A stretch of 64,000 bases of DNA from Candidatus Onstottus frigus. Its GTDB lineage: Bacteria > Acidobacteriota > Blastocatellia > UBA7656. The notes beneath the pieces were generated by a model, which was not told where the DNA came from, did not search any database, and was given only the letters and a program-made list of their open reading frames with translations. The translations under genes and the position numbers were made by a program. Positions 1 to 61,615 of this stretch are shown here, piece by piece. Location of the stretch: positions 257,847 through 321,846 of the forward strand of contig JBBPIG010000002.1 of assembly GCA_038040445.1 (NCBI GenBank), in the 5' to 3' direction. How positions within the stretch are numbered: position 1 is the first letter of the stretch; each line of letters begins with the position of its first letter.

Positions 1-156
1 GGCAACAACAAGGTCCGTTCACGAGACATCATTCTCGCTCCCGGCAAGGACAAAGACGTGAAGGGCTCAGTCGTCGCAATTCCCGACACTGGCGGAGGCG
101 GTAAGCTCAAGTCGGGCGAGATCGCTCCGTTCGAGATTCGGCTCAAGCACAAGTGA
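1..156 (+). CDS. 3' end of an upstream gene (partial; product unknown)
   Basis: Frame open from window edge (…GGGKLKSGEIAPFEIRLKHK*), TGA at 154-156 overlaps GTG start of next gene (GTGA coupling). Confidence 0.3.
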   Translation, partial: GNNKVRSRDIILAPGKDKDVKGSVVAIPDTGGGGKLKSGEIAPFEIRLKHK

Positions 157-1322
157 TCAGAATTTTTCTTCCCAGTAGAATCAGGCTGGCGGCAGCTCTC
201 CTCGCTGTGGCGGCCGTCTCCGCTTGCATGTTCATTGTCCCGGCGGCCAGGGGACAATCTGCAAACAAGGAAGCCGTCCTATCGCCCGAGGCTCGCGCCC
301 TCGTCCGCCAGGCCATCGCTTCGACGGCGCTCGTCTCGGTTCGCAACTCGAGCGATTCTTCCAATTTGGGTCCGCGCGTACGAGGATCAGCGGTAGTCGT
401 GCGCGCCGACGGAGTATTGGTCACCAATTACCATGTCATCTTAAACACCCGGACCAGCCGCTCATACGACGAGATCTTCGTTAGTCTTTCCGGCGACGGC
501 GACGCGCTTTCATCCTCCGCTCGATATCGAGTCAAGCCTCTGCTGATAAACAAGGAATACGATCTGGCTTTGTTGCGCGTGGAATCGGACGCCGCCGGTA
601 ATCCAGTTCCAAAGTCGTTCACCTTTCCCAGCATCGAGATGGCGGACTCGCGCAAAATCAGCCTTTTGGAAGACCTGTTCATCATCGGCTTTCCCGAGAG
701 AGGCGGTTCGACCGTCACAATCAATCGAGGTGTCGTCGAGGGCAAAGATCTATTGGCGAACTGGATCAAGACCAATGCCCGCGTGATCCACGGCAACAGC
801 GGAGGAGCGGCGGTTAACAGCGAAGGCAAGCTGGTCGGCATCCCGACAAAGGTACTCGCCGATGAACAGGCGGTCGACAGAGACGGCGATGGCTTTCCCG
901 ACGACTATCGCCGCTTTGGCGCGGTAGGTTTTCTGCGACCCTCTCACCTTGTTGCCGCGATGGTTGCCCAACTAGACGACAAAAACGCAGTGAGCCAGCC
1001 GGCTCCCGTGGCGCCGAAAATGATCGAGTCATCGAAGCTCATCAGCGTTCGTGGACTCGTCAGGTCGGCTGCGGGCGGCAAGCCAATCGCCGGCGCGCTG
1101 GTTGGGCTTCTCCCGCTTGGAGAGATCAGCGTAACTGAAACGAGTCTGCTGACCTGGGCCAGCACCAACTCCGAAGGCGAGTTTAGACTCAACAGACCAG
1201 TTCCGCCGGGTCGATATACGCTCAAGGCTAAGGCGCTCGCCAGGCAGGCTTACACGCTCGATATCGAAATTGTTCCCAACTCGTCTCTGCTGATCATCGA
1301 GATGCGTGCATCCGATCAGTAA
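153..1322 (+). CDS. Trypsin-like (S1/HtrA-type) serine peptidase with C-terminal carboxypeptidase-regulatory-like beta-sandwich domain
   Basis: Signal-peptide-like N-terminus; catalytic triad context VTNYHV / DLALLRV / GNSGGAAVNSEGKLVGIP; C-terminal ISVRGLV…GRYTLKA CarboxypepD_reg-like segment. Confidence 0.8.
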   Translation: MIRIFLPSRIRLAAALLAVAAVSACMFIVPAARGQSANKEAVLSPEARALVRQAIASTALVSVRNSSDSSNLGPRVRGSAVVVRADGVLVTNYHVILNTRTSRSYDEIFVSLSGDGDALSSSARYRVKPLLINKEYDLALLRVESDAAGNPVPKSFTFPSIEMADSRKISLLEDLFIIGFPERGGSTVTINRGVVEGKDLLANWIKTNARVIHGNSGGAAVNSEGKLVGIPTKVLADEQAVDRDGDGFPDDYRRFGAVGFLRPSHLVAAMVAQLDDKNAVSQPAPVAPKMIESSKLISVRGLVRSAAGGKPIAGALVGLLPLGEISVTETSLLTWASTNSEGEFRLNRPVPPGRYTLKAKALARQAYTLDIEIVPNSSLLIIEMRASDQ

Positions 1323-4380: not shown

Positions 4381-5349
4381 GTGATTAAGACGCTTGTGCT
4401 CAATCGTGAAACCAAAACTTTCACCAAAATTGATGATCCTGATGAAATCAATCAGCTCTGCGCAATACCATCCAATATTATTTGGGTAGATGTGGCTGAT
4501 CCGACAAGCGCCGATTTTGAAGAATTAGCTAAAGAATTTGGCTTTCATCCCCTGTCGATCGAGGACTGCCGCAACGAACATCAGCGCCCTAAAGTTGAAG
4601 AGTTCGAGGGCTACTACTTTATCGTTCTTTATGAAGCTGAATTGGTCCTGGAAAGACATCTGGAACTTCGCGAGTTGAATATTTTTCTAGGCAAGAACTA
4701 TTTAGTCACTGTTCATAGCCAGCCTATACGCACGTTGGAAACTGGTGAACGGCTCTGGCGGGGGTGGACGGATTTAGCTGAAAGAGGCACGGGTTTATTG
4801 GCCTATCTGCTCATAGACGCAATTGTGGATGATTATATGCCTCTGCTTGATGCGATTTCTGATCGAATGGATGAATTGGAGGATAAGATCTTCGTGGATT
4901 TTCAGGCAGAAGCATTGGAAGAGATTTTCCGCATAAAGAAAGATTTGCTCTTCCTGCGCCGGTCGGTCACGCCTTTGCGAGATGTGTTCAATACGCTGCT
5001 GCGTCGCGAACAGCAAATCTTTTCACGCGAGACTTACATCTACTTTCAGGATGTCTTCGATCATTTGATTCGCGTCGCTGACACCATTGATACTCTACGC
5101 GATTTGCTGGGAGCGACAATGGATGCCTACTTGTCGGTTTCAGGAAACCGAATGAATATGGTCATGAAAAGATTGACCTCGATTTCAGCTATTCTTATGT
5201 CGATCACGCTCATTGCCGGAATCTATGGGATGAACTTCGACTTTATGCCCGAACTGAAATGGAGATACGGCTATGTCGGCGCACTAGGCTCAATTCTAGC
5301 GGTTGGTGTTTCCCTTTATCTCTATTTCAGAAGGATCAAATGGCTATGA
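4381..5349 (+). CDS. corA: CorA-family Mg2+/Co2+ transporter
   Basis: C-terminal two TM helices with the diagnostic [11 protein letters not shown] (GMN) motif; GTG start; gene is ~42% GC versus ~60% flanks. Confidence 0.9.
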
Positions 5350-29103: not shown

Positions 29104-29126
29104 CTTTGATGACAAGGAGCACTAGA

Positions 29127-30068
29127 ATGGACTCAAGCAAAACTACGCCAGGACACACTACCAACGGCGAGGAGTGCTTTGTGGTTATGCCGGTACGTGA
29201 TCCTGACGGCTACGCACCGGGACATTTTAAGCATGTGTTCGATGATATATTCGCACCCGCTTGTGACAAGGCTGGGTTTCGACCGATTCGCGCAGACCAG
29301 GTTCGAGCGACAAATCTCATACACCTGGACATTTTGCAAAAGCTAATCGAATCACCAATGGCGTTATGTGACTTAAGCAGTCGGAATCCAAACGTACTCT
29401 TCGAGTTGGGGCTCCGACAGGCTTTTGACCAACCAGTAGTCCTGGTTCGGGAAATTGGCACAGATGACATTTTTGATATCGGTCCGCTTCGATATACCGA
29501 GTATCACAAAGAGCGTATTTACCATGAGGTACTTGAAGATCGGGAGAAGATCGCAATTGCGATAGGCGCCACGCGCGAAGCATTCGAGAGTGGGCAAGGA
29601 GTCAACTCAATCATCAGATTACTGTCGCTCAGTCAACCCGCGAGCTTGGCCGATTTGCAAGAAGCTGACAGGGATCCCCTTCTCCAAATAATACGCGCTG
29701 AAATGAGTGAATTGAGATCTGAGTTTAAGGCTGCCTTGAGAATATCTGATGCTTCGCAGCTTGCGTGGGTCGCACGCTCGCTTCGAATCAACGAGGCAGT
29801 TGAGGAGATTGCTCGTCGCCAATTGGATAAACTTCAACAGGACTTATCAATTTCAGCGTCACTCGATTCTGAACCCGGGCCTTGGGCAGAGAGGAGAAGG
29901 AAGAAATGGGAATTGATTAAAGACGGGATAGGACTTTTAACGACCATGAGGCGAGCCGTAGGAGAAGAGTCAGACCTACTTTCGTCAATCAGCGCTTTAG
30001 CGAAGCGTTACAACGATGCCGAAACAGAGTACCTTGATGAAGAGATTGAAAACATAAACCCGAGTTGA
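29127..30068 (+). CDS. Nucleoside-2-deoxyribosyltransferase-like / TIR-like (flavodoxin-fold, SLOG-type) N-domain fused to a ~190-aa coiled-coil region
   Basis: AAGGAG 8 nt upstream of ATG 29127; ECFVVMPV…ALCDLSSRNPNVLFELGLRQAFDQPVVLV ('MP' + 'NPNVxFELG…PV' motif); rest is heptad-rich helical; ~49% GC. Confidence 0.5.
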   Translation: MDSSKTTPGHTTNGEECFVVMPVRDPDGYAPGHFKHVFDDIFAPACDKAGFRPIRADQVRATNLIHLDILQKLIESPMALCDLSSRNPNVLFELGLRQAFDQPVVLVREIGTDDIFDIGPLRYTEYHKERIYHEVLEDREKIAIAIGATREAFESGQGVNSIIRLLSLSQPASLADLQEADRDPLLQIIRAEMSELRSEFKAALRISDASQLAWVARSLRINEAVEEIARRQLDKLQQDLSISASLDSEPGPWAERRRKKWELIKDGIGLLTTMRRAVGEESDLLSSISALAKRYNDAETEYLDEEIENINPS

Positions 30069-30133: not shown

Positions 30134-32170
30134 ATGGAAGAAGTATTCGGCCCGGGCGGATTAATCGCCCAACATCATCCCAACTACGAATACCGGCCCG
30201 GCCAGGTCGAGATGGCCGAGGCTGTCAACAATATCCTTAAGGACGGCGGCCTCGCCTTGATCGAAGCCGGAACCGGAACCGGCAAAACGCTCGCGTATCT
30301 GATACCCGCCATCGCAGCCGGACGCCGTGTGCTTGTGTCAACCGCGACAAAGAACCTCCAAGAGCAACTGCATAAAAAAGACGTTCCCTTTCTTCAACAG
30401 ATCATCCCGCGTGAGTTCAAAGTCACTTGCATGAAGGGCCGCTCGAATTACGTTTGCCTTCATCGGATGAAGAAGGCCGCCGGCACGCCGATGTTACAAG
30501 GACTCGAAGAGATCGATTACTTCGATCAGATTCGGAAATGGGCGGCCGAGAGCAAAACCGGCGACCGTGCCGAGCTAACCGACCTCCCCGAAGACCTTTC
30601 ATTCTGGCCCCAGATCGACGCGCGAGCCGATACGTGTCTCGGCCAGAAGTGTCCGGACTTTGACGCGTGCTTCATAACGCGAATGCGGCGCGAGGCGATG
30701 GAGGCCGACGTGGTGATCGTCAATCATCATCTCTTCTTCGCCGATCTCGCGCTGCGCGGCGGAGACTACGGCTCGGTGCTGCCCGACTACAATACGGTTA
30801 TCTTCGACGAGGCGCACGAGCTTGAAGACGTTGCCGCTTCTTACTTCGGCACAAGCGTTTCGAACTACCGCGTGAATGACCTCGTCCAAGATGCAAACAA
30901 ACTCGCGATCAAAGAGCCCGAACAGCAAGGAGAGTTGCTAAAGGCGCTGGCGAGATTGACTCAGCGATCGGATATGTTCTGGCTATCGTTTCGCGGAGGC
31001 AGCCTCGACGACGATTCGCCGGAAGGCGGCGGCAATGCTTCGCCATCCAGTGGCCGGTGGCAATCGAACAGAAACACATACCGGCCCCGCGGCTCTTCAC
31101 TGGATGGACGCTATCCGCTGAGCAGCTCGCGGTTCGCTCGAGTCGATCGCGAAGACAACCTTACACCGACCGCGACCGGTGAAGCTTACATCGCGCTCAG
31201 TAATGCCATCGATCGTCTGACAACCATGCTCGGCGTCGTGAAGGACCCGCCGGCGGAACTCGACAACATCGTTCGGCGAGCACAGAGCCTGAAGTTCGAT
31301 CTTGAGTTCGTCGTGAGCTGCGATCAGCCGGATTTCGTCTACTGGTGCGAAAAACGCGGCCGAGGCGTGTTCATCAATGCGACGCCGATCGACGTGTCCG
31401 GCATACTGGAAGAAAACCTCTTCGCCAAGTTGCAAACGGCCGTGCTGACTTCGGCAACGATGACCGCCGGTGCAGCCTTTGATTTCATCCGCGGCCGGCT
31501 CGGCATTCGACAAGCTCGTGAGTTGATCGTCGAATCTCATTTCGATTTTAAGAAGCAGGCAGTGCTTTATCTTCCCCGCGGCATGCCCGACCCGCGAAGC
31601 CGTGACTTCCTGGACGCGTCGGTGGACGAAATCGTTCGGATTCTGGAAGCGACTCGAGGGCGCGCGTTTGTGCTGTTCACGAGCCTGGCTTCGATGCGCG
31701 AGACGCACGAGCGAGTGCGCGACTTGATCGACTATCCAACTTTCATTCAAGGCCAGGGTTCAAAGACAGGTCTGCTCGATCGCTTTCGAAAGACTGAAGG
31801 GGCGGTGTTGTTTGCGACCTCTTCGTTCTGGCAAGGCGTTGACGTTCAGGGCGAAGCGCTCTCCTGCGTGATCATCTCGAAGCTGCCGTTCGCGGTCCCC
31901 AGTGATCCGGTCGTCGCCGCTCGCCAGAAATACATCGACGATCAAGGCGGCAATTCGTTTTATCAATACTCGGTGCCTCAAGCAGCGATCACCTTGAAGC
32001 AAGGTTTGGGCAGACTGATTCGTTCAACTAGCGACAAAGGTGTCCTTTCGATATTGGACCCGCGAGTGAAGACGAAGTCCTACGGAAGGGTTTTTCTCCA
32101 AAGCATTCCTCAATGCCGCGTGACTTCAAGCATCGAGGAAGCAGCGGCGATCTTCACGGATCATACCTAG
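30134..32170 (+). CDS. DinG/XPD (Rad3)-family ATP-dependent DNA helicase with FeS-cluster cysteines
   Basis: Walker A AGTGTGKT; four Cys (CMKGRSNYVC…C…CPDFDAC); DEAH box FDEAHE; helicase C-terminal motifs; ~70-aa low-complexity Ser/Gly/Arg insert. Confidence 0.85.
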   Translation: MEEVFGPGGLIAQHHPNYEYRPGQVEMAEAVNNILKDGGLALIEAGTGTGKTLAYLIPAIAAGRRVLVSTATKNLQEQLHKKDVPFLQQIIPREFKVTCMKGRSNYVCLHRMKKAAGTPMLQGLEEIDYFDQIRKWAAESKTGDRAELTDLPEDLSFWPQIDARADTCLGQKCPDFDACFITRMRREAMEADVVIVNHHLFFADLALRGGDYGSVLPDYNTVIFDEAHELEDVAASYFGTSVSNYRVNDLVQDANKLAIKEPEQQGELLKALARLTQRSDMFWLSFRGGSLDDDSPEGGGNASPSSGRWQSNRNTYRPRGSSLDGRYPLSSSRFARVDREDNLTPTATGEAYIALSNAIDRLTTMLGVVKDPPAELDNIVRRAQSLKFDLEFVVSCDQPDFVYWCEKRGRGVFINATPIDVSGILEENLFAKLQTAVLTSATMTAGAAFDFIRGRLGIRQARELIVESHFDFKKQAVLYLPRGMPDPRSRDFLDASVDEIVRILEATRGRAFVLFTSLASMRETHERVRDLIDYPTFIQGQGSKTGLLDRFRKTEGAVLFATSSFWQGVDVQGEALSCVIISKLPFAVPSDPVVAARQKYIDDQGGNSFYQYSVPQAAITLKQGLGRLIRSTSDKGVLSILDPRVKTKSYGRVFLQSIPQCRVTSSIEEAAAIFTDHT

Positions 32171-33404: not shown

Positions 33405-35480
33405 ATGGCAATAAAGAAGCAGCCACTTGTTTTGGGTGACCAAAGTCGCAAGTGTCAACCGCGTCTTCGGATGATCGCCAACGGGAGCGATAAGGTTAAC
33501 ACGGTAAGAGCCGAGCAATGTTCGTCGCTCTCGGTAACGAACTCCAAGCTTCTCAAAGAGATTCCCCTCCTGCGCGGCGAGGATGCGGTCCCATTGAAAA
33601 GGATCGAGCTTCCAAAAAGCGTCATGCCCAAGACACAAAAGCAGGTGCCCGCGGATATTCTCGCCAATGTCTTCATCGAAACACTCGATGCCACGGCGCC
33701 GCAGAAACGAAAGTTTCCCGGAGAGCGGGCGCGGAAATCGAATCTGGTGACCGCTCAGGTTCCTCTCAACAAGATCAAGGAGATTGCCGCCAGGGACAAC
33801 GTTACTTACATAGAGCTGGGCGAACGGCTCGCCGCACCCACGCCAACAGTCTCCGCCAAATCAGTCGCGGCGCCCTCCCAATCCCTGCGCCGATTCGGCA
33901 CCGCACAGCAAAGGAAGAACGCTGAGAATGTGCTGATAGGAATCATAGACGTGCAGGGCTTCGACTTCTCACATCCCGATTTTCTTGATGCCGGCGGGCA
34001 GACCAGGTTCGTACGGATCTGGGATCAAGGAGGCTCGACCCGCCCGCACCCAAAAGGCGTCAAGCAATTCGCTTACGGATCGGAATTTCGTCGAGAGCAT
34101 CTGAATGCCGCGATTGCGGCCGCGCCCAAACTCAAGCTTCCTCCTTTTGAGTTAGAACCGCAGTCACAGATGGCGGTTGGCTCGCACGGCACACACGTGG
34201 CTAGCATTGCTGCCGGCAATCGCGGCGTCTGCCCTGAGGCTATGATCGCCGGTGTGGTCATATCGCTTCCGGCGGCAGATCAGGACCGGCGTAAATCCTT
34301 TTACGATTCGACGCGCATTGCCGACGCCGTTGATTATCTCGTCAACCTCACGGCCGAGTTCTCCGCCAAACGGAAGGAGCCTGTGCGCCTGTCGGTCAAC
34401 ATCAGTCTGGGCACCAATGGACACGCGCACGATGGTTCGAGTGCGATCTCGCGCTGGATTGACGCCGCGATGTCCCTTCCGGGTCGCTGTGTTTGTGTTG
34501 CCGCGGGCAACGCCGGACAAGAAGTCGCCGCCTTTGAAGGCGACAGCGGATTCGTCATGGGCCGTATCCACACCAGTGGCGGCGTCCCCGCACGCGATCT
34601 GGTGAAAGACATCGAGTGGCTAGTGGTGGGCAACGGGATCGCGGATGTTTCCGAGAACGAGCTGGAGATTTGGTACAGCCCGCAGGACCGCTTCGCTGTG
34701 ATGGTTCGTCCGCCCAATTCGACGCAATGGATCGGCCCGGTTGAGCCCCGCCAGTTTATCGAGAATCGGCAACTCAAGGACGGGAGTTTTCTGAGCATCT
34801 ACAATGAGCTTTACTATCCGGCGAACGGGGCCAACTACATTTCGATCTACCTTTCGCCGCTGCTTTCCGAGAAGGGAATCGTCGGAGTGCAGGCCGGACG
34901 CTGGACGGTACGCTTGCTCGGGCGCGAGGTGCGCGACGGCCGCTATCACGCATGGATCGAACGTGACGACCCGCGCCCTCAGGGCCGGTTGGGCGAGCGG
35001 GAGATGTGGCGATTCCCCTCCTTCTTTTCCGAAGCGTCGAATGTTGACAACTCATCGGTCAGCTCGCTGGCCTGCGGCAACCGCGTTATCGGTGTGGCCA
35101 ACCTGGATGACGCGGCCGAGCGCATCCACATCACAAGCAGTCAGGGGCCAACTCGGGACGAGCGAAACAAGCCGGACACGGCGGCTCCAGGCACGAATAT
35201 CCCCGCAGCCAAGGGTTTCGCCGGGCCTGATGACCTGTGGATCTCGATGACCGGCACCAGCATGGCCAGTCCTTTCGTAGCCGGCGTCGCCGGACTGATG
35301 CTGGGCGTTGAGCCGAAACTCACCGCGGCGCAACTCGAAGGCATCATCATCCGCACCGCCCGCCCTCTGCCCGGGGCAAGCTTCAAATGGCTTAATGATT
35401 CGGGCTTCGGAAGGATTGATCCCGATGCTTGCCTGGCAGAAGCGGCGATGATCAATCAACGGGAGGACAAAACAAAATGA
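33405..35480 (+). CDS. Subtilisin-like S8 serine peptidase, apparently intracellular (no signal peptide)
   Basis: Asp GIIDVQGFD, His GSHGTHVASIAAG, Ser GTSMASPFVAGVAGLM; ~180-aa N-terminal region of unknown function. Confidence 0.85.
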   Translation: MAIKKQPLVLGDQSRKCQPRLRMIANGSDKVNTVRAEQCSSLSVTNSKLLKEIPLLRGEDAVPLKRIELPKSVMPKTQKQVPADILANVFIETLDATAPQKRKFPGERARKSNLVTAQVPLNKIKEIAARDNVTYIELGERLAAPTPTVSAKSVAAPSQSLRRFGTAQQRKNAENVLIGIIDVQGFDFSHPDFLDAGGQTRFVRIWDQGGSTRPHPKGVKQFAYGSEFRREHLNAAIAAAPKLKLPPFELEPQSQMAVGSHGTHVASIAAGNRGVCPEAMIAGVVISLPAADQDRRKSFYDSTRIADAVDYLVNLTAEFSAKRKEPVRLSVNISLGTNGHAHDGSSAISRWIDAAMSLPGRCVCVAAGNAGQEVAAFEGDSGFVMGRIHTSGGVPARDLVKDIEWLVVGNGIADVSENELEIWYSPQDRFAVMVRPPNSTQWIGPVEPRQFIENRQLKDGSFLSIYNELYYPANGANYISIYLSPLLSEKGIVGVQAGRWTVRLLGREVRDGRYHAWIERDDPRPQGRLGEREMWRFPSFFSEASNVDNSSVSSLACGNRVIGVANLDDAAERIHITSSQGPTRDERNKPDTAAPGTNIPAAKGFAGPDDLWISMTGTSMASPFVAGVAGLMLGVEPKLTAAQLEGIIIRTARPLPGASFKWLNDSGFGRIDPDACLAEAAMINQREDKTK

Positions 35481-36826
35481 AGCTGACCGTCTTTCAATCC
35501 GACAAGGGGGACTGCCTTCTGCTGACAGGCGCGGACGGGCGACGGATGCTGGTCGACGGCGGAATGCGTGCCTCTTATTCAGAGCACGTCGCGCCCGCGA
35601 CGGGCAAGCTGCGCGACAACGGCGAGAACATCGACGTCGTTTACGTCTCGCACATCGATCAGGATCACATATCGGGCGTGCTGCAAATGATGGACGACGA
35701 AGTTGCCTGGCGCATTCATGATTTCCAGGTGACTAACGACAACCCCAATCATAAGGAGCCCGATTCCCCACGCCCGCCGAAGGTCGCCCAGATTTGGCAT
35801 AACGCCTTTCACGACCAGATCAAAGACAATGCCGGTGAGATCGAGGAAATGCTGGCGGCTTCGGCGGCTATCCTCTCAGGCGCTGGGAGAGAGTCCGTCA
35901 GAGAGCTTGCGTCGGCGCAGGACGAGCTGGTGACAAGCATCGCCGAGGCGATCAAGCTGACCAAGCGCGTCAGCCCGGCTCAACTCGGCATCAAACTGAA
36001 TGTCCCGGCCAAGGGAAAGCTGATGCTGGTACGCCCCTCAACCACCGCCGCCATCAAACTCGGCGGCATGCGGTTCTCCATCATCGGGCCATTCTCCGCG
36101 GACCTGACGAAGCTGAGAGCGGAATGGAACAAGTGGCTGACCGATAATAAACCGCAGCTAAAATCCATACAGGCAGCGGCCAAAAAAGACGAGGCCAGTT
36201 TTGGCGCCGCCGAGATCGACGACCTCCTTCTGCCGAAGCTCGCGCAGGCGGAGCAGATGAGCGCGCTCTTGACGCCGGACGACTTGGCAACGGCGTTCAA
36301 ACTCGGCGAGCGCGAGAATGTTACAACTCCGAATCTCGCCTCGCTGATGTTCTTCGTCGAAGAGAATGGAAAGACGCTGCTTCTGACAGGCGACGGTCAC
36401 CATTTAGATATCTTGAAGGGTCTCAAACACATCAAGAAGCTGAACGGTTCGGGGGGTATCCACGTTAATGTTCTGAAGGTCCAGCATCACGGCAGCGAGC
36501 ACAACCTTAATGAAGCCTTCTGTCGAGCCGTCACCGCCGACCACTATGTTTTTTGCGGAAACGGTAAACATGAGAATCCTGACTTGCAAGTGATTGAAGC
36601 GATCGCGGATTCGCGCATCAGCACTGGCGCGAAGCTCAGCTCAAACCCTCAAGTGGGCAACCCGTTCAAGTTTTCGGTGAACAGCAGTTCAACCGTAACG
36701 AAAAACGCCGAGGCTAAGGCGCACATGAAGAAGGTTGAAAAACTCTTCAGCAACCTCGCCAACAAGAGCAATGGAAAGATGAGCTTTTTCTTTCTCAAAG
36801 GTTCGAGCTTCGAGGTTCAGATATGA
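35477..36826 (+). CDS. MBL-fold metallo-hydrolase-like protein (variant HxDxDH motif)
   Basis: VYVSHIDQDHISG, later LLLTGDG and KVQHHGSEHN; GGGAGG RBS; ATG overlaps S8 stop (ATGA). Confidence 0.6.
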   Translation: MKLTVFQSDKGDCLLLTGADGRRMLVDGGMRASYSEHVAPATGKLRDNGENIDVVYVSHIDQDHISGVLQMMDDEVAWRIHDFQVTNDNPNHKEPDSPRPPKVAQIWHNAFHDQIKDNAGEIEEMLAASAAILSGAGRESVRELASAQDELVTSIAEAIKLTKRVSPAQLGIKLNVPAKGKLMLVRPSTTAAIKLGGMRFSIIGPFSADLTKLRAEWNKWLTDNKPQLKSIQAAAKKDEASFGAAEIDDLLLPKLAQAEQMSALLTPDDLATAFKLGERENVTTPNLASLMFFVEENGKTLLLTGDGHHLDILKGLKHIKKLNGSGGIHVNVLKVQHHGSEHNLNEAFCRAVTADHYVFCGNGKHENPDLQVIEAIADSRISTGAKLSSNPQVGNPFKFSVNSSSTVTKNAEAKAHMKKVEKLFSNLANKSNGKMSFFFLKGSSFEVQI

Positions 36827-55702: not shown

Positions 55703-56760
55703 AACGTCTTCAGCGACGCGATCAGCGCCTTACGATCTTCCGCCGAAAGATCCAGCCCGAACTCTTGCCCCTTCACCGCACGCGTCTTCACTTCAGAGCC
55801 CTTGAATCCTGTCGGCACATAGTCGTCTCGCAAGCGTCGGCGGTCAAACCAATCCTCAAGAGTAGCAACGGAGCCGCTGTGCTCGAAGGGCCCTCTATAC
55901 CACACACCCTTCAGCGAAGGTACTTTGCACCGGATACGACGGGCTCGAACGATGACGCGCTAACACTCCCGGCGGAATCGCCTCATGCGGCGAGGCAAGG
56001 TCTTCAACTGACATCTTGTCGAACTTGTTCTCCGGTTTGGAGTCACCGCCGGGCACGGTAAAGAGTAAACGTTCGAGGGTCCGTGGGGCGTCAACTTTGT
56101 CGGCTGCTGATCGGAAGTCATAGGCCAATGCGCGGTCGAACGGGGAATTGCCCTGCGCGCCTTTGGGGATTCTTCCGTACGGCATGACCCGTGTGTGGCA
56201 CATCGCGCAAGAGAGAATTCCAATCTCGACCTCTCCTTTTTCCGAGATAACGTAGCGGTAAAACGGTAACGTGCCGTCCTTAGCAACGTGCGCTATTGTT
56301 GTTGAGTACCATTTCGCCTCTTCAGGTAAAGCTCACTACTCGGCCCTAGGGCGCCCAACTTGCCGGTGCCTATGGGCGCGTCGAATACAAGTTCGCCCGC
56401 CTTTATCCAATCTTGCTCTGTCCTGAGTTTTGAAGCATCGAAGATGATTTCTGGTTCCAGCTTGCCAAGCCCTTCGATGTATTCCGGCGGCTCTTTATCC
56501 GGGGCGTACACCGGATAGCTCTTGTAGATTGGCCGAACAGGGATGCGGTAGTAGTAATCAGCGGGAATATGCTTCGGTGAGCTAGCAGGATCGGAAAGGG
56601 GTATTTCTAACGCGGCGATCTCGGTGTCCACCCAGGTCTTTGGTATCTCAGGCTTCCAGTTGTTAGGAGTCCTCTGCGCATCACCTCTACGGGCGAAGAC
56701 AACGCACCCCAACACGAGCAAGAGAGCAAGGAAGTACCGCTTAAGGTTTCTGTGATTCAT
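55699..56760 (-). pseudogene. Secreted mono-haem c-type cytochrome gene broken into three ORFs by at least two frameshifts
   Basis: Signal peptide ORF (56293-56760) runs into stop; +1 frame continues …AHVAKDGTLPFYRYVISEKGEVEIGILSCAMCH (CxxCH) into ORF 55895-56203, which overlaps out of frame with 55699-55905 (…AEGCVV / WYRGPFEHSG…). Confidence 0.5.
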
Positions 56761-56919
56761 CAGAGCCCCCGTCGCAACTGTCGGTAGTTATCCACCATTC
56801 CTATCGTTCGAAGCAGCAGCTTCTGCTGCAGTCTAAGGGTGCGTACCTCGCGACGAGTAGTTTGCGGTTGTGGAGCATAGGGCCAGTTGGAAGGTCGCTC
56901 GCCACCTAGATGAACCCTG

Positions 56920-57384
56920 TCACCGTTCCACTTCATCACCCTCTTTCGTTCTCGCCAAGGCGGCTTGCTTCAACGCGGCCAAAAGTTGCTTGATCATGTC
57001 CTGATCGAGGAGCGCTGCTTTGTCGAAGTGATAGTGGGCAGTCCACCGTTCACCCGTTTTCTCGGCGATTTCATCTCGGGGCACAACCGAGAGGAAGAGG
57101 GTCGGGACATCAGCATTTTTCGGCCCGAGTTCTTTGTTTTGAAGTTTCTCAGCGAGTTCGAGGCCACCAAGACCGCCAGATCTCCAAGAAGCTGGATCGT
57201 CAAAGACCAGATCAAGCAGTACAACATCGAAAGGCTCCGACCTCAGCAGGTGCTCAGCGGTGGAGATGTCTGCAGCCGCGGACACCAGCCACCCTTCTCT
57301 CTCAAAGAAGAGTCCCAACGGACGAAGCAGAGACGTCGCATCGTCGTCAACCCAAAGGAGGCGGAGGTTCTTGGTCATGATCAA
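56920..57384 (-). CDS. Stand-alone response-regulator receiver domain protein
   Basis: LRLLWVDDD…DVVLLDL…; no output domain; start overlaps upstream gene end. Confidence 0.75.
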   Translation of the reverse strand: MIMTKNLRLLWVDDDATSLLRPLGLFFEREGWLVSAAADISTAEHLLRSEPFDVVLLDLVFDDPASWRSGGLGGLELAEKLQNKELGPKNADVPTLFLSVVPRDEIAEKTGERWTAHYHFDKAALLDQDMIKQLLAALKQAALARTKEGDEVER

Positions 57385-57965
57385 CCCAGTCGTGGTAGAG
57401 CCAGTGAAGAAAACTCGTTTAGAGCAGAAAGCAACAGTTCGTGCTGGCTCTGGCTAATTACCGACAATGCCCTATCTATCTCGGTGGCCTCGCGGTCACC
57501 GATCTCCAGCCACTGGCCGTCCCATACGCCAGTCATGTCCAAAAAGAGGGAGATCTCGATCGCTTTTTCCTTCGCAACCTGAAAGCGACGACGCTCGTCG
57601 TTATCAAACACGCTGTGATGCTCACGGTATGCCGTGATAACCGCGTCTTGGGCGTGTTGCACGCGCTCGCGTCGTTCAGCGGCAAGCAATGACTTCGGCG
57701 CAGATCTGATCAAGAGCAGCATCTCGTCTTGGAAGCTCTGAATCGCTTTGGAACTTTCGCGAATAGCCTTCTGCTTCTCGCGCCACTGCTCGATCGCAAT
57801 ATCCCAGGCCCGACCGTCTCGCGTAAGACTCTTCTGCTGACGACTATACGAACGCGACTGGAGAAACTGAAGGATGCCAGTAGTAATCGCGACGAGCAGG
57901 GCCGACCCGGACGTTACTAGCGCAATGAGAATCTGAGTATCCATGCCTTCGATTTCTCGGCTCAC
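57381..57965 (-). CDS. Membrane-anchored helical hypothetical protein
   Basis: One N-terminal TM helix, remainder helical; 4-nt overlap with receiver gene. Confidence 0.4.
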   Translation of the reverse strand: MSREIEGMDTQILIALVTSGSALLVAITTGILQFLQSRSYSRQQKSLTRDGRAWDIAIEQWREKQKAIRESSKAIQSFQDEMLLLIRSAPKSLLAAERRERVQHAQDAVITAYREHHSVFDNDERRRFQVAKEKAIEISLFLDMTGVWDGQWLEIGDREATEIDRALSVISQSQHELLLSALNEFSSLALPRLG

Positions 57966-58033
57966 GATCGCCGAAGGTGTTCTAGCTGACGATCGTGCGG
58001 CGCGTCTTTCCTCGCTAAATGTGTATTGAAGAG

Positions 58034-58654
58034 TTATAACGCTGTTTGCGGGCTGGCGCTGGGCAACGGCACGATCGCCGGGAACTCATAGACGAATTTG
58101 AGCAACATCTCTGTAAATACTAATATCTCCTTTGCATCCGTCTCCTCCATTAGGACTATCTCGTGAGTTGCCTCGTTTCCCTTTCTGCGGATGTGATCGA
58201 CCCAGTGTCGGCCATTCGGCGGGATATACCCATTCGCGGCGAGAAAGTCCACATACTCGATGAACCTCAAACCTTCTTGCGCCCCTTGTGCAACTGCAAT
58301 GTTCATCAGCAGTTTTCTACAGAGCAATACGGCTCCAGTGTAGCAGGTTACTCCAACACAACGTCTCGCTTCTTCGTAGACGGCTTCAACAGTTTCAGGT
58401 AGATGTTGTACTGGTGTGCCAAAGGCCGGTGAAGGAAGAACCGAGCCTGTCGGAGCAAAGAACGCCGGTCCGCGGCAGTTCGGACAGATGTAGACTCCTC
58501 CGGTCTGTGCGCCACTCGCGTCCTGGTGCTGACCAATCATGTAACCCCGATCCGATGAGACTGTGCGCGAGCAATAGCCGCAGATCCAGCTTTTGTTCTC
58601 AATATACTGAAGACTTTTATAGTTTGCAGAGCGCCCATCAATGAACGGTTCCAT
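58034..58654 (-). CDS. Zinc-ribbon + DUF4145 domain protein (paralog 1)
   Basis: CGYC…CPNC ribbon; C-terminal FLAANGYIPPNGRHWVDHIRRKGNEATHE = DUF4145 signature. Confidence 0.6.
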   Translation of the reverse strand: MEPFIDGRSANYKSLQYIENKSWICGYCSRTVSSDRGYMIGQHQDASGAQTGGVYICPNCRGPAFFAPTGSVLPSPAFGTPVQHLPETVEAVYEEARRCVGVTCYTGAVLLCRKLLMNIAVAQGAQEGLRFIEYVDFLAANGYIPPNGRHWVDHIRRKGNEATHEIVLMEETDAKEILVFTEMLLKFVYEFPAIVPLPSASPQTAL

Positions 58655-58777
58655 AAATGCTCCCCTGTTACACGGCTCGATAGCCGCCTTGATCTCGACG
58701 ACAGGCTGTCAGCTCACGGCCTGAGCAACCCGAGGTATCACGCGAACTGCGCTTCGCGACCTCCGTTGCATGCGCTT

Positions 58778-59620
58778 TCAGACCTCTTCGGCTGAGTCTA
58801 GCTTCTTCATTTCTACAATAAATTCTGCATATTCATCATAGCCCTCAAGATATTCATCGAGTTCCTCTTGATCAAAAATGTAAGTGTTCTTAACAGGACT
58901 GTCCACCAAGGGTACAATCGCGATCACTTTATAGCGCGAATTCCAGAATTGATCTAAAGTAGCTTTATCAATCGTGGTTGACTCGAAGGGCTTCAATAAG
59001 TACTCAGTCATGTAAAAGGAGAGTTGATAGAGTAAGGAGGAACCACTCGCGACAACAGATTCTGCATCTTCCCTCTGTATATCTTCTCCGTGAATAGCTC
59101 TGTTGCAGATTGAAATAACTTCGCGCGTTGAACGCGCAATCTCTGGTGGCAATATCTCTGTGTTAGAGAGTATATGCACGAGCTGGCCTGCGGTCTTAGA
59201 GCGGCGATCCCGATTATCTTTATGCGTTATCCGGTAGAGCTTGTTGAGGGCTTTCTCCAACTCGATCCTAAGCTTCGCCAGGGCAAGAATTGGATCAGTA
59301 TCAGCCAATGCCTTAATGCTTTTGGTGGTATTTTCGGCTTCTAGGACCTGCCTAGGAGCGTCGCTCTCAGACTCAGTGATCTGTGCAGAAACTTCCTCCC
59401 TTATTCTCTTTACTTCCTTCGGATCAATCTCCGCCTCGAAATCACCTATCTTGATCTTTGTGATAGCCGAAATGAAAGGGCTAAGAAGGATGACGAGTAG
59501 GAGAATTATGGAAGTGTTATCTATCTTGATCGGCTGAAATGACAGGGTGTGTGCTATTAACATAGAAAGCGCGAGCAACAATGTAATCCACCATAGATGA
59601 GATACCAGGAATCTTTTCAT
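58778..59620 (-). CDS. Membrane-anchored DUF4145 domain protein (paralog 2)
   Basis: Two N-terminal TM helices; QLVHILSNTEILPPEIARSTREVISICNRAIHGE DUF4145-like; ~42% GC. Confidence 0.5.
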   Translation of the reverse strand: MKRFLVSHLWWITLLLALSMLIAHTLSFQPIKIDNTSIILLLVILLSPFISAITKIKIGDFEAEIDPKEVKRIREEVSAQITESESDAPRQVLEAENTTKSIKALADTDPILALAKLRIELEKALNKLYRITHKDNRDRRSKTAGQLVHILSNTEILPPEIARSTREVISICNRAIHGEDIQREDAESVVASGSSLLYQLSFYMTEYLLKPFESTTIDKATLDQFWNSRYKVIAIVPLVDSPVKNTYIFDQEELDEYLEGYDEYAEFIVEMKKLDSAEEV

Positions 59621-59779
59621 AGCGCTAATTCACCTCTGGAGGTCCAACTTTGAATGGTCCCCGTAGTCATACCACGGCGATTGGGCCGTGTAATCAAGAT
59701 CGGATCAGACTCCGTTAAGGTCGCAGAACCATACGGCGACTAGGGAGCATGAGCAAGAATGACGAAGCAGCCCGACGTG

Positions 59780-59848
59780 TGATATATACACCACTTACTC
59801 CGAGCCGACCCGGATTATACGGCAACGTGCCGGATGTGCAACGCGAGC
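59780..59848. repeat. Conserved ~60-bp upstream leader, copy 1 (before paralog 2)
   Basis: ATATATACACCACTTACTCCGAGCCGACCCGGATTATACGGCAACGTGCCGGATGTGCAACG. Confidence 0.55.
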
Positions 59849-59875
59849 GATGTTTAGGCTGCCACATATCAGACT

Positions 59876-60520
59876 CTATTTTAAAGGGGGCTTGCTCGCA
59901 TCCGTAAGTTTCTGATTAAGCGCATCGCGCTTCTTCTGAAGTATTGCTGGCTGCACAAAATAAAAATCAAATAGCGCTTCGAGGGTATCGAGCAGCCACT
60001 CTGCTTCTTGTGGTTCAACCTCAATCACCGCGCCGGTATTAGTGCTCTTAATCGGATGAGCCGCAAAGTTTCCTACTACCCTTACTGCATCAACCGCGTC
60101 CGACAACTGCGAGGGTAGTTGTCTCGAGTCTATGACCTGCTGAATCTCATCGCTTAGATTTCCGTGCTTTATACCAGCCTTGTCTCGAAGAATCATCTGA
60201 AGACAACGGCGGCTCAATGCTGCACTTGCCTTCTCACTATCAGGCATAACCAGACAGGCTTCTGTGTAGTCCGACGAGAGAGGCTCGGGCACCTCTGGCG
60301 CGACGGGTGAACGAGTTGAGGCCTTGGGATAAATCCTAATTTGTAAAGTCCGTACATTATGACCAGCTTGTAGAGTGTATACAACAAGTTCTATAGTCAA
60401 TTCGCGGCAGGAAGGGCAGAGCGTATGGCGTACATTCCAGTTACGTTTACCGTCCTGTTGAAGGTGGGGTTCAGCCCAGATGTCGTGAAATGCGACCGTA
60501 CAGTGGGGGCATCTTAGCAT
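59876..60520 (-). CDS. Zinc-ribbon + DUF4145 domain protein (paralog 3)
   Basis: CPHC…CPSC ribbon; C-terminal VIDSRQLPSQLSDAVDAVRVVGNFAAHP DUF4145-like. Confidence 0.6.
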   Translation of the reverse strand: MLRCPHCTVAFHDIWAEPHLQQDGKRNWNVRHTLCPSCRELTIELVVYTLQAGHNVRTLQIRIYPKASTRSPVAPEVPEPLSSDYTEACLVMPDSEKASAALSRRCLQMILRDKAGIKHGNLSDEIQQVIDSRQLPSQLSDAVDAVRVVGNFAAHPIKSTNTGAVIEVEPQEAEWLLDTLEALFDFYFVQPAILQKKRDALNQKLTDASKPPLK

Positions 60521-60593
60521 AATAGTTCTCGTGATCCCTCGTAGTTTGTGAACTGACTAAAGCGAAGTAACCAAATCTCACGTGAGCGGGTCT

Positions 60594-60655
60594 GTAATAT
60601 ATCGCTTACTACGAGCCGACACGGATTATACTGCAACTCACCGGTTTTGCAACGG
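60594..60655. repeat. Conserved upstream leader, copy 2 (before paralog 3)
   Basis: AATATATCGCTTACTACGAGCCGACACGGATTATACTGCAACTCACCGGTTTTGCAACG. Confidence 0.55.
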
Positions 60656-60657
60656 GA

Positions 60658-61461
60658 CTATCCCAATTGTATTTCAGTAGGGACCTCCGGATTCATCAAC
60701 GACGCGCCGCCGTCCGCATATATCACCTGTCCCGTTATCCAGCTAGCTTGAGCCGAACAAAACAGCGACACAACGTTGCCGATATCTTCCGGCGTTCCGA
60801 GGCGCCCCATCGGAGTCCACCCGCGTTGGTGCCAATTGCGAAGAAGTTCTTGCGCTTCCTCGGGCAGCGTGTTCAATACGCTGTCCTCGGTCCATCCGGG
60901 GCTGATCGCATTCACCGTGATGCCGCGTTTGGCGAGGGCTACCGCGAAATAACGAACGAGTGACTCGAGCGCTGCCTTCGCTGAGCCCATGCCAACCCAG
61001 GGTTGCAACCCGCCAGTGCGGCTCCCTTCGGCGTAGGTGATTGCGAAGATTCTTCCGCCGTCGCCCATCAGTGGAATCGCCTCTCGAACCGCAACGAGGA
61101 ACGCCTTCGCCTGTGAATCAAACGCTGCGTCCCACTGTTCCAGCGTGATGTCCAACGGGCCTTGGAAGAACGCCGGTATCTCGGGGCGTGCGTTGCTCAC
61201 GAAGATGTCAATCTTCCCAAAGGCCTCTTTCACCTTCCGGACCATACTGGTGATCTCTTCCGGATGCATAACATCAGCCTGCACCACCACACCATCCGAT
61301 CCGCGCGTGCGGACTTCGGCGAGCGTGTCTCTTGCGGCAGCCTCGTTTTGGTAATAGTGGACGGCTACTTTGACGCCGCTCTCCGCCAGTTTCAGGGCGA
61401 TTCCCCTGCCAATGCCACGGGAGCCGCCGGTGATCAGCGCGTGCTTTCCGTTTAGCGACAT
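60658..61461 (-). CDS. SDR-family NAD(P)-dependent oxidoreductase
   Basis: TGGSRGIGRGIA cofactor motif, catalytic region, ~267 aa. Confidence 0.85.
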   Translation of the reverse strand: MSLNGKHALITGGSRGIGRGIALKLAESGVKVAVHYYQNEAAARDTLAEVRTRGSDGVVVQADVMHPEEITSMVRKVKEAFGKIDIFVSNARPEIPAFFQGPLDITLEQWDAAFDSQAKAFLVAVREAIPLMGDGGRIFAITYAEGSRTGGLQPWVGMGSAKAALESLVRYFAVALAKRGITVNAISPGWTEDSVLNTLPEEAQELLRNWHQRGWTPMGRLGTPEDIGNVVSLFCSAQASWITGQVIYADGGASLMNPEVPTEIQLG

Positions 61462-61615
61462 GTCGACCTCCTTGAATGCGCCGTCGAAGTTTGAAAGGCA
61501 TCTCCAATCGCAAAGCTGCGATCAGGCAATCTGATTCCGCAAGAGCCGGACTAGACCGCGAAAGGCCGCAGACCGGGCCTGCGATTAGGTATCACACACG
61601 TTGCCAGCCACCAAG

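Follow-up and report, generated by a model that had tools for sequence, protein, structure and literature searches.

The 64-kb stretch of Candidatus Onstottus frigus DNA analysed here (contig JBBPIG010000002.1, called the window below) carries three consecutive minus-strand genes, named g3, g2 and g1 from upstream to downstream, each of which encodes a protein with a DUF4145-type HEPN domain. Together they probably constitute a horizontally acquired defence islet of three independent single-gene HEPN modules, whose mechanism is proposed by analogy with RAZR. An initial annotation of the sequence had recognised three DUF4145 genes, and a Pfam scan bears this out at the coordinates of Table 1, with scores of 54.3 bits for g3, 36.7 bits for g1 and 21.7 bits for g2, the last lying under the cut-off of 23.1 bits. 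The same annotation had proposed a context of defence or abortive infection (Abi), and this fits what was found, since both g3 and g1 match PD-T7-4, the system now known as RAZR and characterised as a HEPN RNase (PMC13017515). Most of this is known biology: the RAZR part of the islet has already been described and nothing here overturns current understanding, the modestly novel elements being a family of membrane-anchored HEPN proteins to which g2 belongs and a repeated promoter module.

RAZR (ring-activated zinc-finger RNase) is the new name given to PD-T7-4 of Escherichia coli UMB1727 (PMC13017515). It is an experimentally characterised anti-phage RNase composed of a zinc finger and a DUF4145/HEPN domain, and it works as a single gene (PMC13017515). 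Its mechanism was solved in E. coli in 2026: the protein assembles as a 24-mer around ring-forming phage proteins (portal, Gp77) and then cleaves RNA non-specifically, which results in abortive infection, while its specificity is set by the zinc finger (PMC13017515). Judged by its sequence, g3 is a full-length homolog of RAZR/PD-T7-4. It matches the PADLOC model of PD-T7-4 over residues 3-156 (9.9e-23) and the RAZR chain of the cryo-electron microscopy structure (PDB 9y9c_OA) over residues 4-193, that is, across zinc finger, linker and HEPN domain (E=2.6e-11), and it is about 30% identical to RAZR. The CPHC knuckle of g3 aligns with the CPHC of RAZR, and in the aligned motif R-VVGN-FAA-H-P the residues R147 and H155 correspond to R146 and H154 of RAZR. 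The four cysteines C4, C7, C35 and C38, together with R147, N151 and H155, are kept in 119-120 of 120 homologs. The likeness therefore extends over the whole design, both being single-gene proteins of about 215 amino acids with an N-terminal Cys4 ribbon, a linker of the form P..P...SDY.EA and a C-terminal HEPN domain with the motif R-x3-N-x3-H; the hosts differ, being a soil member of the Acidobacteriota for g3 and g1 and E. coli for RAZR.

The two Cys4 zinc-ribbon proteins and the one protein with two transmembrane (TM) helices listed in the initial annotation were likewise recovered, CxxC...CxxC pairs occurring in g3 and g1 and two hydrophobic segments in g2 only. From its sequence, g1 falls into a second subfamily of zinc-ribbon-HEPN proteins, one often met with in prophages. 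It matches the PADLOC model of PD-T7-4 weakly (7.6e-8), and both g1 and g3 match phrog_1305 over their full length (2e-25 and 1e-30, respectively). The g1 family comprises 2125 cluster representatives at E<=1e-3; an alignment of 62 representatives shows C25, C28, C57 and C60 without exception, and at least 90% of the sequences keep R156, N160 and H164. Genes resembling g1 were found in 47 IMG/VR contigs, many of them of prophage size. In its AlphaFold2 model (predicted local distance difference test, pLDDT, of 90) four strands are followed by five helices. The protein thus has the domain order of RAZR, with a Cys4 ribbon and an R-x7-H motif in one chain of about 200 amino acids, but its zinc ribbon is larger and four-stranded and its subfamily is separate. 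A possible counterpart is DS-38 (DefensePredictor), a validated single-gene system of HEPN and zinc finger in which the zinc finger is unlike that of PD-T7-4; its validation implies that several zinc-finger-HEPN subfamilies can be independent defence genes, and g1 is possibly DS-38-like, a comparison made by description only. One IMG/VR contig (L077, 2061-3725) carries two DUF4145-type genes in tandem, a g3-like gene and then a g1-like one, so such pairs recur in mobile elements.

The protein encoded by g2 shows no similarity to g3 or g1 by BLASTP. Its family (about 278 amino acids) has at least 478 homologs, counted as cluster representatives and almost all full-length, and among the best 120 of the 478, identity to g2 is 44-64% if two near-identical copies are left aside. 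Several members carry a precomputed PF13643 assignment, and some have been named DUF4145 by NCBI. When the profile of the family was compared with that of the g1 family (hhalign), the two aligned at E=5.8e-4, with N173 paired to N160 and H177 to H164. A fold search of the PDB returned HEPN toxins as the sole high-probability matches (0.9-0.97), though at non-significant E values (E>0.1); the AlphaFold2 model behind it has an overall pLDDT of 80, rising above 90 for residues 100-270, and Kyte-Doolittle windows of at least 1.6 begin at residues 4-10 and 28-41. Invariant in the family are W10, W11, H24, D34 and P48 in the TM hairpin, the segment G-D-F-E-A-E-I, R118, and the motif C-N173-R174-A-x-H177-G. 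The canonical HEPN motif R-x4-6-H, or R-x7-H in DUF4145 domains of the RAZR type, does not occur in g2; instead, the family has an invariant R174 (H-3), an R166 (H-11) conserved in at least 90% of members, and conserved N173 and H177. The catalytic centre accordingly looks re-arranged into N173-R174-x2-H177 plus R166, and R174, R166 and H177 would lie on the same face of one helix. It had been stated that all three genes end in a DUF4145 domain; the domain is indeed present in each of them, whereas g2 continues for about 60 amino acids beyond it. In this C-terminal domain Y230, P237, Q251, G260, Y261 and E266 are conserved, and searches of the PDB and BFVD gave no informative fold match for it.

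The g2 family is widely scattered. A genome scan located it at 35 loci in Acidobacteriota, Planctomycetota, Gemmatimonadota, Bacteroidota, Bacillota and Proteobacteria as well as in Omnitrophota, the candidate phyla radiation and several archaea, and none was found in phages or viral contigs. On the mobilizable plasmid pVOWZ1 of Vibrio owensii (L047, 57388-59110) a member annotated as DUF4145 has a serine-recombinase-type gene on one side and an Abi-alpha family gene on the other. Elsewhere, individual loci adjoin DndB, a type I restriction-modification (R-M) system or BREX genes, and close relatives of g2 (60-64% identity) are solitary among hypothetical genes. Of the 184 open reading frames (ORFs) lying within 3.5 kb at 33 non-redundant loci, two at most belong to any one Pfam family, from which it follows that the g2 family has no fixed partner gene. 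PADLOC matches among these 184 neighbours include BrxL, R-M components of types I, II, III and IIG, SspH, AbiJ, mad2/8, PD-Lambda-2 and PDC candidates; on a rough count such defence-type matches make up about 10% of the neighbours, the rest being housekeeping genes. Such surroundings are typical of an accessory gene that is mobile, stands alone and tends towards defence islands. Conserved, lacking a model in PADLOC, NCBIfam and PHROG and endowed with an unusual catalytic signature, the family is a reasonable candidate for a single-gene defence system.

By analogy with RAZR, g3 and g1 would sit in the cell as inactive oligomers until their N-terminal zinc ribbon bound a ring-forming phage protein such as the portal. 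The curved assembly enforced by the ring would bring the C-terminal HEPN RNase into its active state (R147/H155 in g3, R156/H164 in g1), and its non-specific cutting of RNA would halt translation and abort the infection. As specificity in RAZR lies with the zinc ribbon, two very different ribbons next to each other would extend the range of triggers, and a pair of deeply divergent zinc-ribbon-HEPN genes is what would be expected if hosts stack sensors to broaden their coverage. As for g2, it would most likely be a third stand-alone abortive-infection effector, acting at the inner face of the membrane as a tethered HEPN enzyme or possibly as a pore-type effector. The initial annotation had envisaged a type I R-M or Abi partner for the genes; none was found within the window, and the need for one falls away with RAZR acting as a single gene (PMC13017515) and with no shared partner around the 33 g2-family loci.

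Several points weigh against this explanation. The mechanism is transferred from the E. coli protein, to which g3 is only some 30% identical, and the RAZR inter-dimer residues D179, D180 and R184 are not conserved in g3, where the corresponding segment F-D-F-Y-F-V-Q retains a single Asp and has no Arg. Conservation of these residues across the RAZR family may itself be lacking, and their divergence in g3 lowers confidence in mechanistic identity rather than in homology. A sequence search of the PDB with g1 (phmmer) gave no match, and its top fold match (Foldseek), although it is RAZR (9y9c_OA), is weak (E=0.013, TM 0.36-0.40). In g2 the site of the canonical RAZR-type arginine (R156 in g1) is occupied by I169, and by I, V or L across the family; besides its Pfam score below the cut-off, g2 was matched by no model in PADLOC, NCBIfam or PHROG. 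Many g2-family loci lie amid housekeeping genes, and a role of the family in defence is suggested by its enrichment near defence genes. The transcription start and the activity of the promoter module described below are predictions. Homology between g3 and RAZR is established by the matches given above; activity and triggers, and likewise the function of g2, are what we infer.

Two other roles for g2 deserve consideration alongside that of an autonomous RNase. It could be an accessory effector in the membrane, working together with the zinc-ribbon-HEPN RNases on either side, much as Csx28 of type VI-B CRISPR systems, a pore made of a TM segment and a divergent HEPN domain, needs the active HEPN RNase Cas13b (bioRxiv 10.1101/2021.11.02.466367). 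Like Csx28, g2 has an N-terminal TM part and a divergent HEPN four-helix bundle, and its gene adjoins an HEPN RNase gene. In three phyla the TM-HEPN gene is directly preceded, at a distance of 54-255 nt, by a zinc-finger DUF4145 gene of the same orientation: in the window, in a Sedimentisphaerales metagenome-assembled genome (MAG) with a g3-like upstream gene (L011, 2171-4776), where a further 293-aa gene follows the TM-HEPN gene, and in a gammaproteobacterial MAG with a g1-like one (L036, 3196-4637). The loss of the canonical catalytic arginine position and the invariant polar residues H24 and D34 within the TM hairpin would also suit an accessory role. We nevertheless regard it as unlikely, because the adjacency is confined to 3 of about 39 non-redundant g2-family loci and to none of the 47 g1-like prophage loci, the closest relatives of g2 are solitary, g2 has a promoter copy of its own, and the invariance of R174, H177 and N173 is what one would expect if g2 were an enzyme. 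Csx28 is not among the top 50 PDB fold matches of g2, which in further contrast to it has no CRISPR context and no detectable sequence or fold match to it, and retains an invariant Arg-His pair. The adjacency is thus suggestive of clustering or of occasional cooperation, not of an obligate system. Even less probable is that g2 is directed against plasmids rather than phages in the manner of Ishtar1/2, which join a DUF4145/DUF3644 HEPN domain to an alpha/beta domain and cause the loss of conjugative plasmids (bioRxiv 10.64898/2026.07.06.735840). Ishtar proteins are broadly distributed and often lie near defence genes (bioRxiv 10.64898/2026.07.06.735840), and in g2, too, a conserved alpha/beta domain comes after a DUF4145-like HEPN domain. 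By description, however, the N-terminal HEPN domain of Ishtar lacks TM segments and its C-terminal domain has 5-7 strands and 3 helices, whereas g2 begins with a TM hairpin and its C-terminal domain has 3 strands and 2 helices. A stand-alone effector remains the preferred reading for g2.

A conserved leader of about 60 bp before two of the genes had been noticed in the initial annotation, and it was recovered here as a 61-nt direct repeat, copies A and B being 80% identical. Its 27-nt core occurs exactly twice in the 64 kb, where 0 occurrences are expected by chance. A promoter scan predicts a near-consensus sigma-70 promoter (10/12 in copy A), and conservation extends for about 30-45 nt 3' of it, the most invariant stretch being GTATAATCCGGGTCGGCTCGGAGTAAG. 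Two more copies emerged from a scan of metagenomes. One, in a JGI metagenome contig (L046, 14-940, minus strand), precedes a DUF433-DUF433-DUF5615 (PIN-like) operon of toxin-antitoxin type, and the other (L045, 346-868, minus strand) lies ahead of two short ORFs of 58 and 90 aa that are predicted to encode membrane proteins and have no Pfam match. Over a 56-nt core of the four copies, A and B are the most divergent pair (80%), each being 88% identical to the copy in L046, and the flanks and the downstream genes share nothing. No copy was found in phage or viral contigs, nor in 51 fetched loci apart from L045, L046 and the source contigs themselves (L001 and L002). The leader is read as a portable, predicted sigma-70 promoter module of the lineage, which may also include an operator or a small hairpin that stabilises the 5' end. 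One copy of about 61-75 nt would drive each of g3 and g2, and g1 may be co-transcribed with g2.

Other identities considered for the leader were rejected. There is no Rfam match at E<=1 in 56500-61500 that would point to a riboswitch or small RNA, and a structured RNA is not indicated by RNAalifold (-2.6 kcal/mol, with essentially no covariation). Single-stranded DNA folds of both strands, with z of -1.3 to +0.3 against shuffles, do not resemble an attC site of integron cassettes. The divergence of the proteins set against the identities of the leaders speaks against a by-product of gene duplication, and a degraded third leader upstream of g1 was discarded, local alignment scores there falling within the shuffle distribution.

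Since the leader also stands before an operon resembling a toxin-antitoxin module, conflict genes of this little-studied phylum may be regulated in a modular or common fashion. Taken further, the g2 family might be a new pan-prokaryotic membrane immune effector with a re-wired HEPN centre (N-R-x2-H), either autonomous or, like Csx28, a partner triggered by neighbouring RAZR-type RNases; the adjacent zinc-finger-HEPN and TM-HEPN genes of three phyla might form a two-tier system, and the leader might be a lineage-specific regulatory 'plug' that puts conflict genes under one control. We consider this extended proposal speculative and unlikely.

With regard to the origin of the islet, the initial annotation had proposed tandem duplication of a gene-plus-promoter unit, which would make the three genes diverged local paralogs. 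Three same-strand DUF4145 genes in a row, a 61-nt leader before two of the three, and tandem DUF4145 pairs elsewhere (L011, L036, L077) speak for it, but the proposal is largely refuted and we give it hardly any credence. Whereas the leaders are 80% identical, identity between the g3 and g1 proteins is 23% and g2 has no significant similarity to the other two; moreover, the two leaders of the window are the most divergent of the four, each standing closer to the copy before the DUF433/DUF5615 operon. Each gene has a large family of its own, with hundreds to thousands of members, and the three architectures differ. So does the GC content, at 49.6% in g3, 44.0% in g2 and 52.0% in g1 against 56.0 +/- 3.2% for the 40 other ORFs of the window, which upholds the drop reported before and makes g2 the lowest-GC ORF of the whole window. 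A g3 homolog of 71% identity is solitary, between ThiF and SmpB, and leaderless, and a g2 ortholog at 92% identity (L052) is not accompanied by g1. The latter shares the proximal 5' untranslated region of g2 and the first ~30 nt after its stop codon: in the alignment of L052 896-930 with window positions 58745-58778, homology ends about 30 nt past the g2 stop, inside the window hairpin CGCGAAGCGCAGTTCGCG, and a recombination breakpoint may thus mark the 3' border of the g2 module. Given the divergence of g3 from g1 and of g2 from both, the differing GC, the solitary g3 homolog and the g2 ortholog without g1, the islet is a mosaic and not the product of duplication. The genes look accessory rather than core, in view of their low GC, the unrelated contexts of their closest relatives and a patchy taxonomy that includes archaea and a plasmid.

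Table 1. Coordinates (window numbering), strand and main characteristics of the islet, its leaders and the two genes downstream
Feature	Position	Strand	Characteristics
g3	59876..60520	-	214 aa; RAZR/PD-T7-4 homolog by sequence: Cys4 zinc ribbon, linker and DUF4145/HEPN, R147...H155
g3 zinc ribbon, putative sensor domain, residues 4-38	60407..60511	-	CPHC...CPSC aligned to the RAZR zinc finger
g3 HEPN (DUF4145), residues 87-180	59981..60262	-	Pfam stretch
g2	58778..59620	-	280 aa; predicted membrane-anchored protein: TM hairpin, DUF4145-like HEPN (N173-R174-A-x-H177) and small C-terminal domain
g2 TM hairpin, residues 2-55	59456..59617	-	AlphaFold2 helices 2-25 and 35-55
g2 HEPN-like helical domain, residues ~90-209	58994..59353	-	Pfam DUF4145 stretch 103-190, 21.7 bits
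g2 C-terminal beta-beta-alpha-beta domain, ~60 aa, residues ~219-273	58802..58966	-	AlphaFold2 pLDDT >90
g1	58034..58654	-	206 aa; zinc-ribbon-HEPN of a second RAZR-like subfamily; C25/C28/C57/C60, R156...H164
g2-g1 spacer	58655..58777	-	No leader copy; two small hairpins
Leader copy A	60597..60657	-	Predicted -35 TTGCAA, 16 nt, -10 TATAAT; one base after the stop codon of the short-chain dehydrogenase gene
Leader copy B	59786..59846	-	Predicted -35 TTGCAC, 16 nt, -10 TATAAT; 29 nt past the g3 stop, ~165 nt before the g2 start
187-aa ORFan membrane protein	57381-57944	-	NCBI locus tag AABO57_03535; one N-terminal TM segment
Stand-alone receiver, 154 aa	56920-57384	-	Response_reg 26.3 bits, under the Pfam cut-off

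The three modules would have been inserted between a short-chain dehydrogenase (SDR) gene, which flanks g3 upstream, and the ORFan/receiver pair, which flanks g1 downstream; the same arrangement is present in two Logan assemblies. The g3 protein has a 100% identical counterpart at NCBI, encoded on a 386-kb contig of an Acidobacteriota MAG. A receiver had been reported immediately downstream of the islet, but the 187-aa membrane protein lies in between, its stop codon overlapping the start of the receiver by 4 nt. Among 5.8e9 proteins this intervening protein has zero homologs, retrieving itself only. In the receiver the acidic pocket, D58 and the conserved Lys are kept, as judged by eye, and both genes have a normal GC content (54-55%). 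The link that had been drawn between the islet and this operon is not supported, its first gene being an ORFan and receivers not recurring next to g1, g2 or g3 family members, and there is no evidence that the pair belongs to the islet.

It is at this flank that a non-immune function has to be weighed, in which the three proteins would be stimulus-dependent HEPN RNases of RNA turnover or stress dormancy, possibly wired to the membrane-protein/receiver pair. It has been proposed that membrane HEPN proteins sense stimuli at the cell surface and respond by degrading RNA, and the TM module of one DUF4145 group also occurs fused to receiver domains (PMC3710099). Such a function would be in keeping with this model by Anantharaman et al. 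(2013), with the position of the TM and receiver operon 89 nt 3' of g1, where terminator prediction finds no terminator in the gap, and with the housekeeping surroundings of many g2-family loci. It is rendered distinctly unlikely by the ORFan status of the downstream TM protein and the absence of receivers among recurrent neighbours, by the validated anti-phage member of the g3 family (PMC13017515), and by the frequency of the g1 family in prophages and the low GC. The g2 family, for its part, is patchy across the domains of life, lies on a plasmid beside Abi-alpha, and is found in the vicinity of R-M, BREX, Ssp and Abi genes much more frequently than a random gene would be. A defence islet therefore remains the explanation to be preferred.

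The TM-DUF4145 group described by Anantharaman et al. (for example, Vibrio cholerae gi 153825856) resembles g2 in joining a TM part to a cytoplasmic DUF4145-type HEPN domain, and both occur in Vibrio. Compared by description only, that group has a single TM helix with a 'WP' signature, whereas the g2 family has two predicted TM helices, in which W10-W11 and P48 are invariant but non-adjacent, and an extra C-terminal domain. The HEPN fold is also shared with the HEPN-MNT systems (HepT-MntA), and, after RAZR, the HEPN domains of g2 and g1 find their closest structural neighbours in HepT toxins. The architectures differ, however, and g1-g3 have no adjacent MNT or other antitoxin gene, no ORF or Pfam match to an MNT nucleotidyltransferase being found between 56293 and 62485.

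The rest of the window consists mostly of housekeeping genes (CorA, SHMT, DinG, subtilase, SDR), no tRNA gene was found in it, and the PADLOC matches outside the islet are to generic DinG, subtilase and metallo-beta-lactamase (MBL) domains. A subtilase gene (Peptidase_S8; 33405-35480, plus strand) is followed by an overlapping gene for an MBL-fold protein (35429-36826, plus strand) that matches PADLOC LmuA (5e-47), Avs1a (2.5e-29) and RTasMBL; this could reflect either generic MBL similarity or an effector-like pair. The DinG-type helicase (30134-32170, plus strand) matches the PADLOC model of type IV CRISPR-associated DinG (5e-147) and is probably a housekeeping DinG; cas genes were not looked for. 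Two further window genes of low GC lie at 4381-5349 and 29106-30068, both on the plus strand; one of them encodes a CorA Mg2+ transporter (45.1% GC) and the other is a 320-aa ORF (48.8% GC) that matched nothing in Pfam or PADLOC searches. The first ORF of the window (153-1322, plus strand) matches the protease part of PADLOC RT-Protease_XI models (4e-14), which is likely to reflect a generic protease domain.

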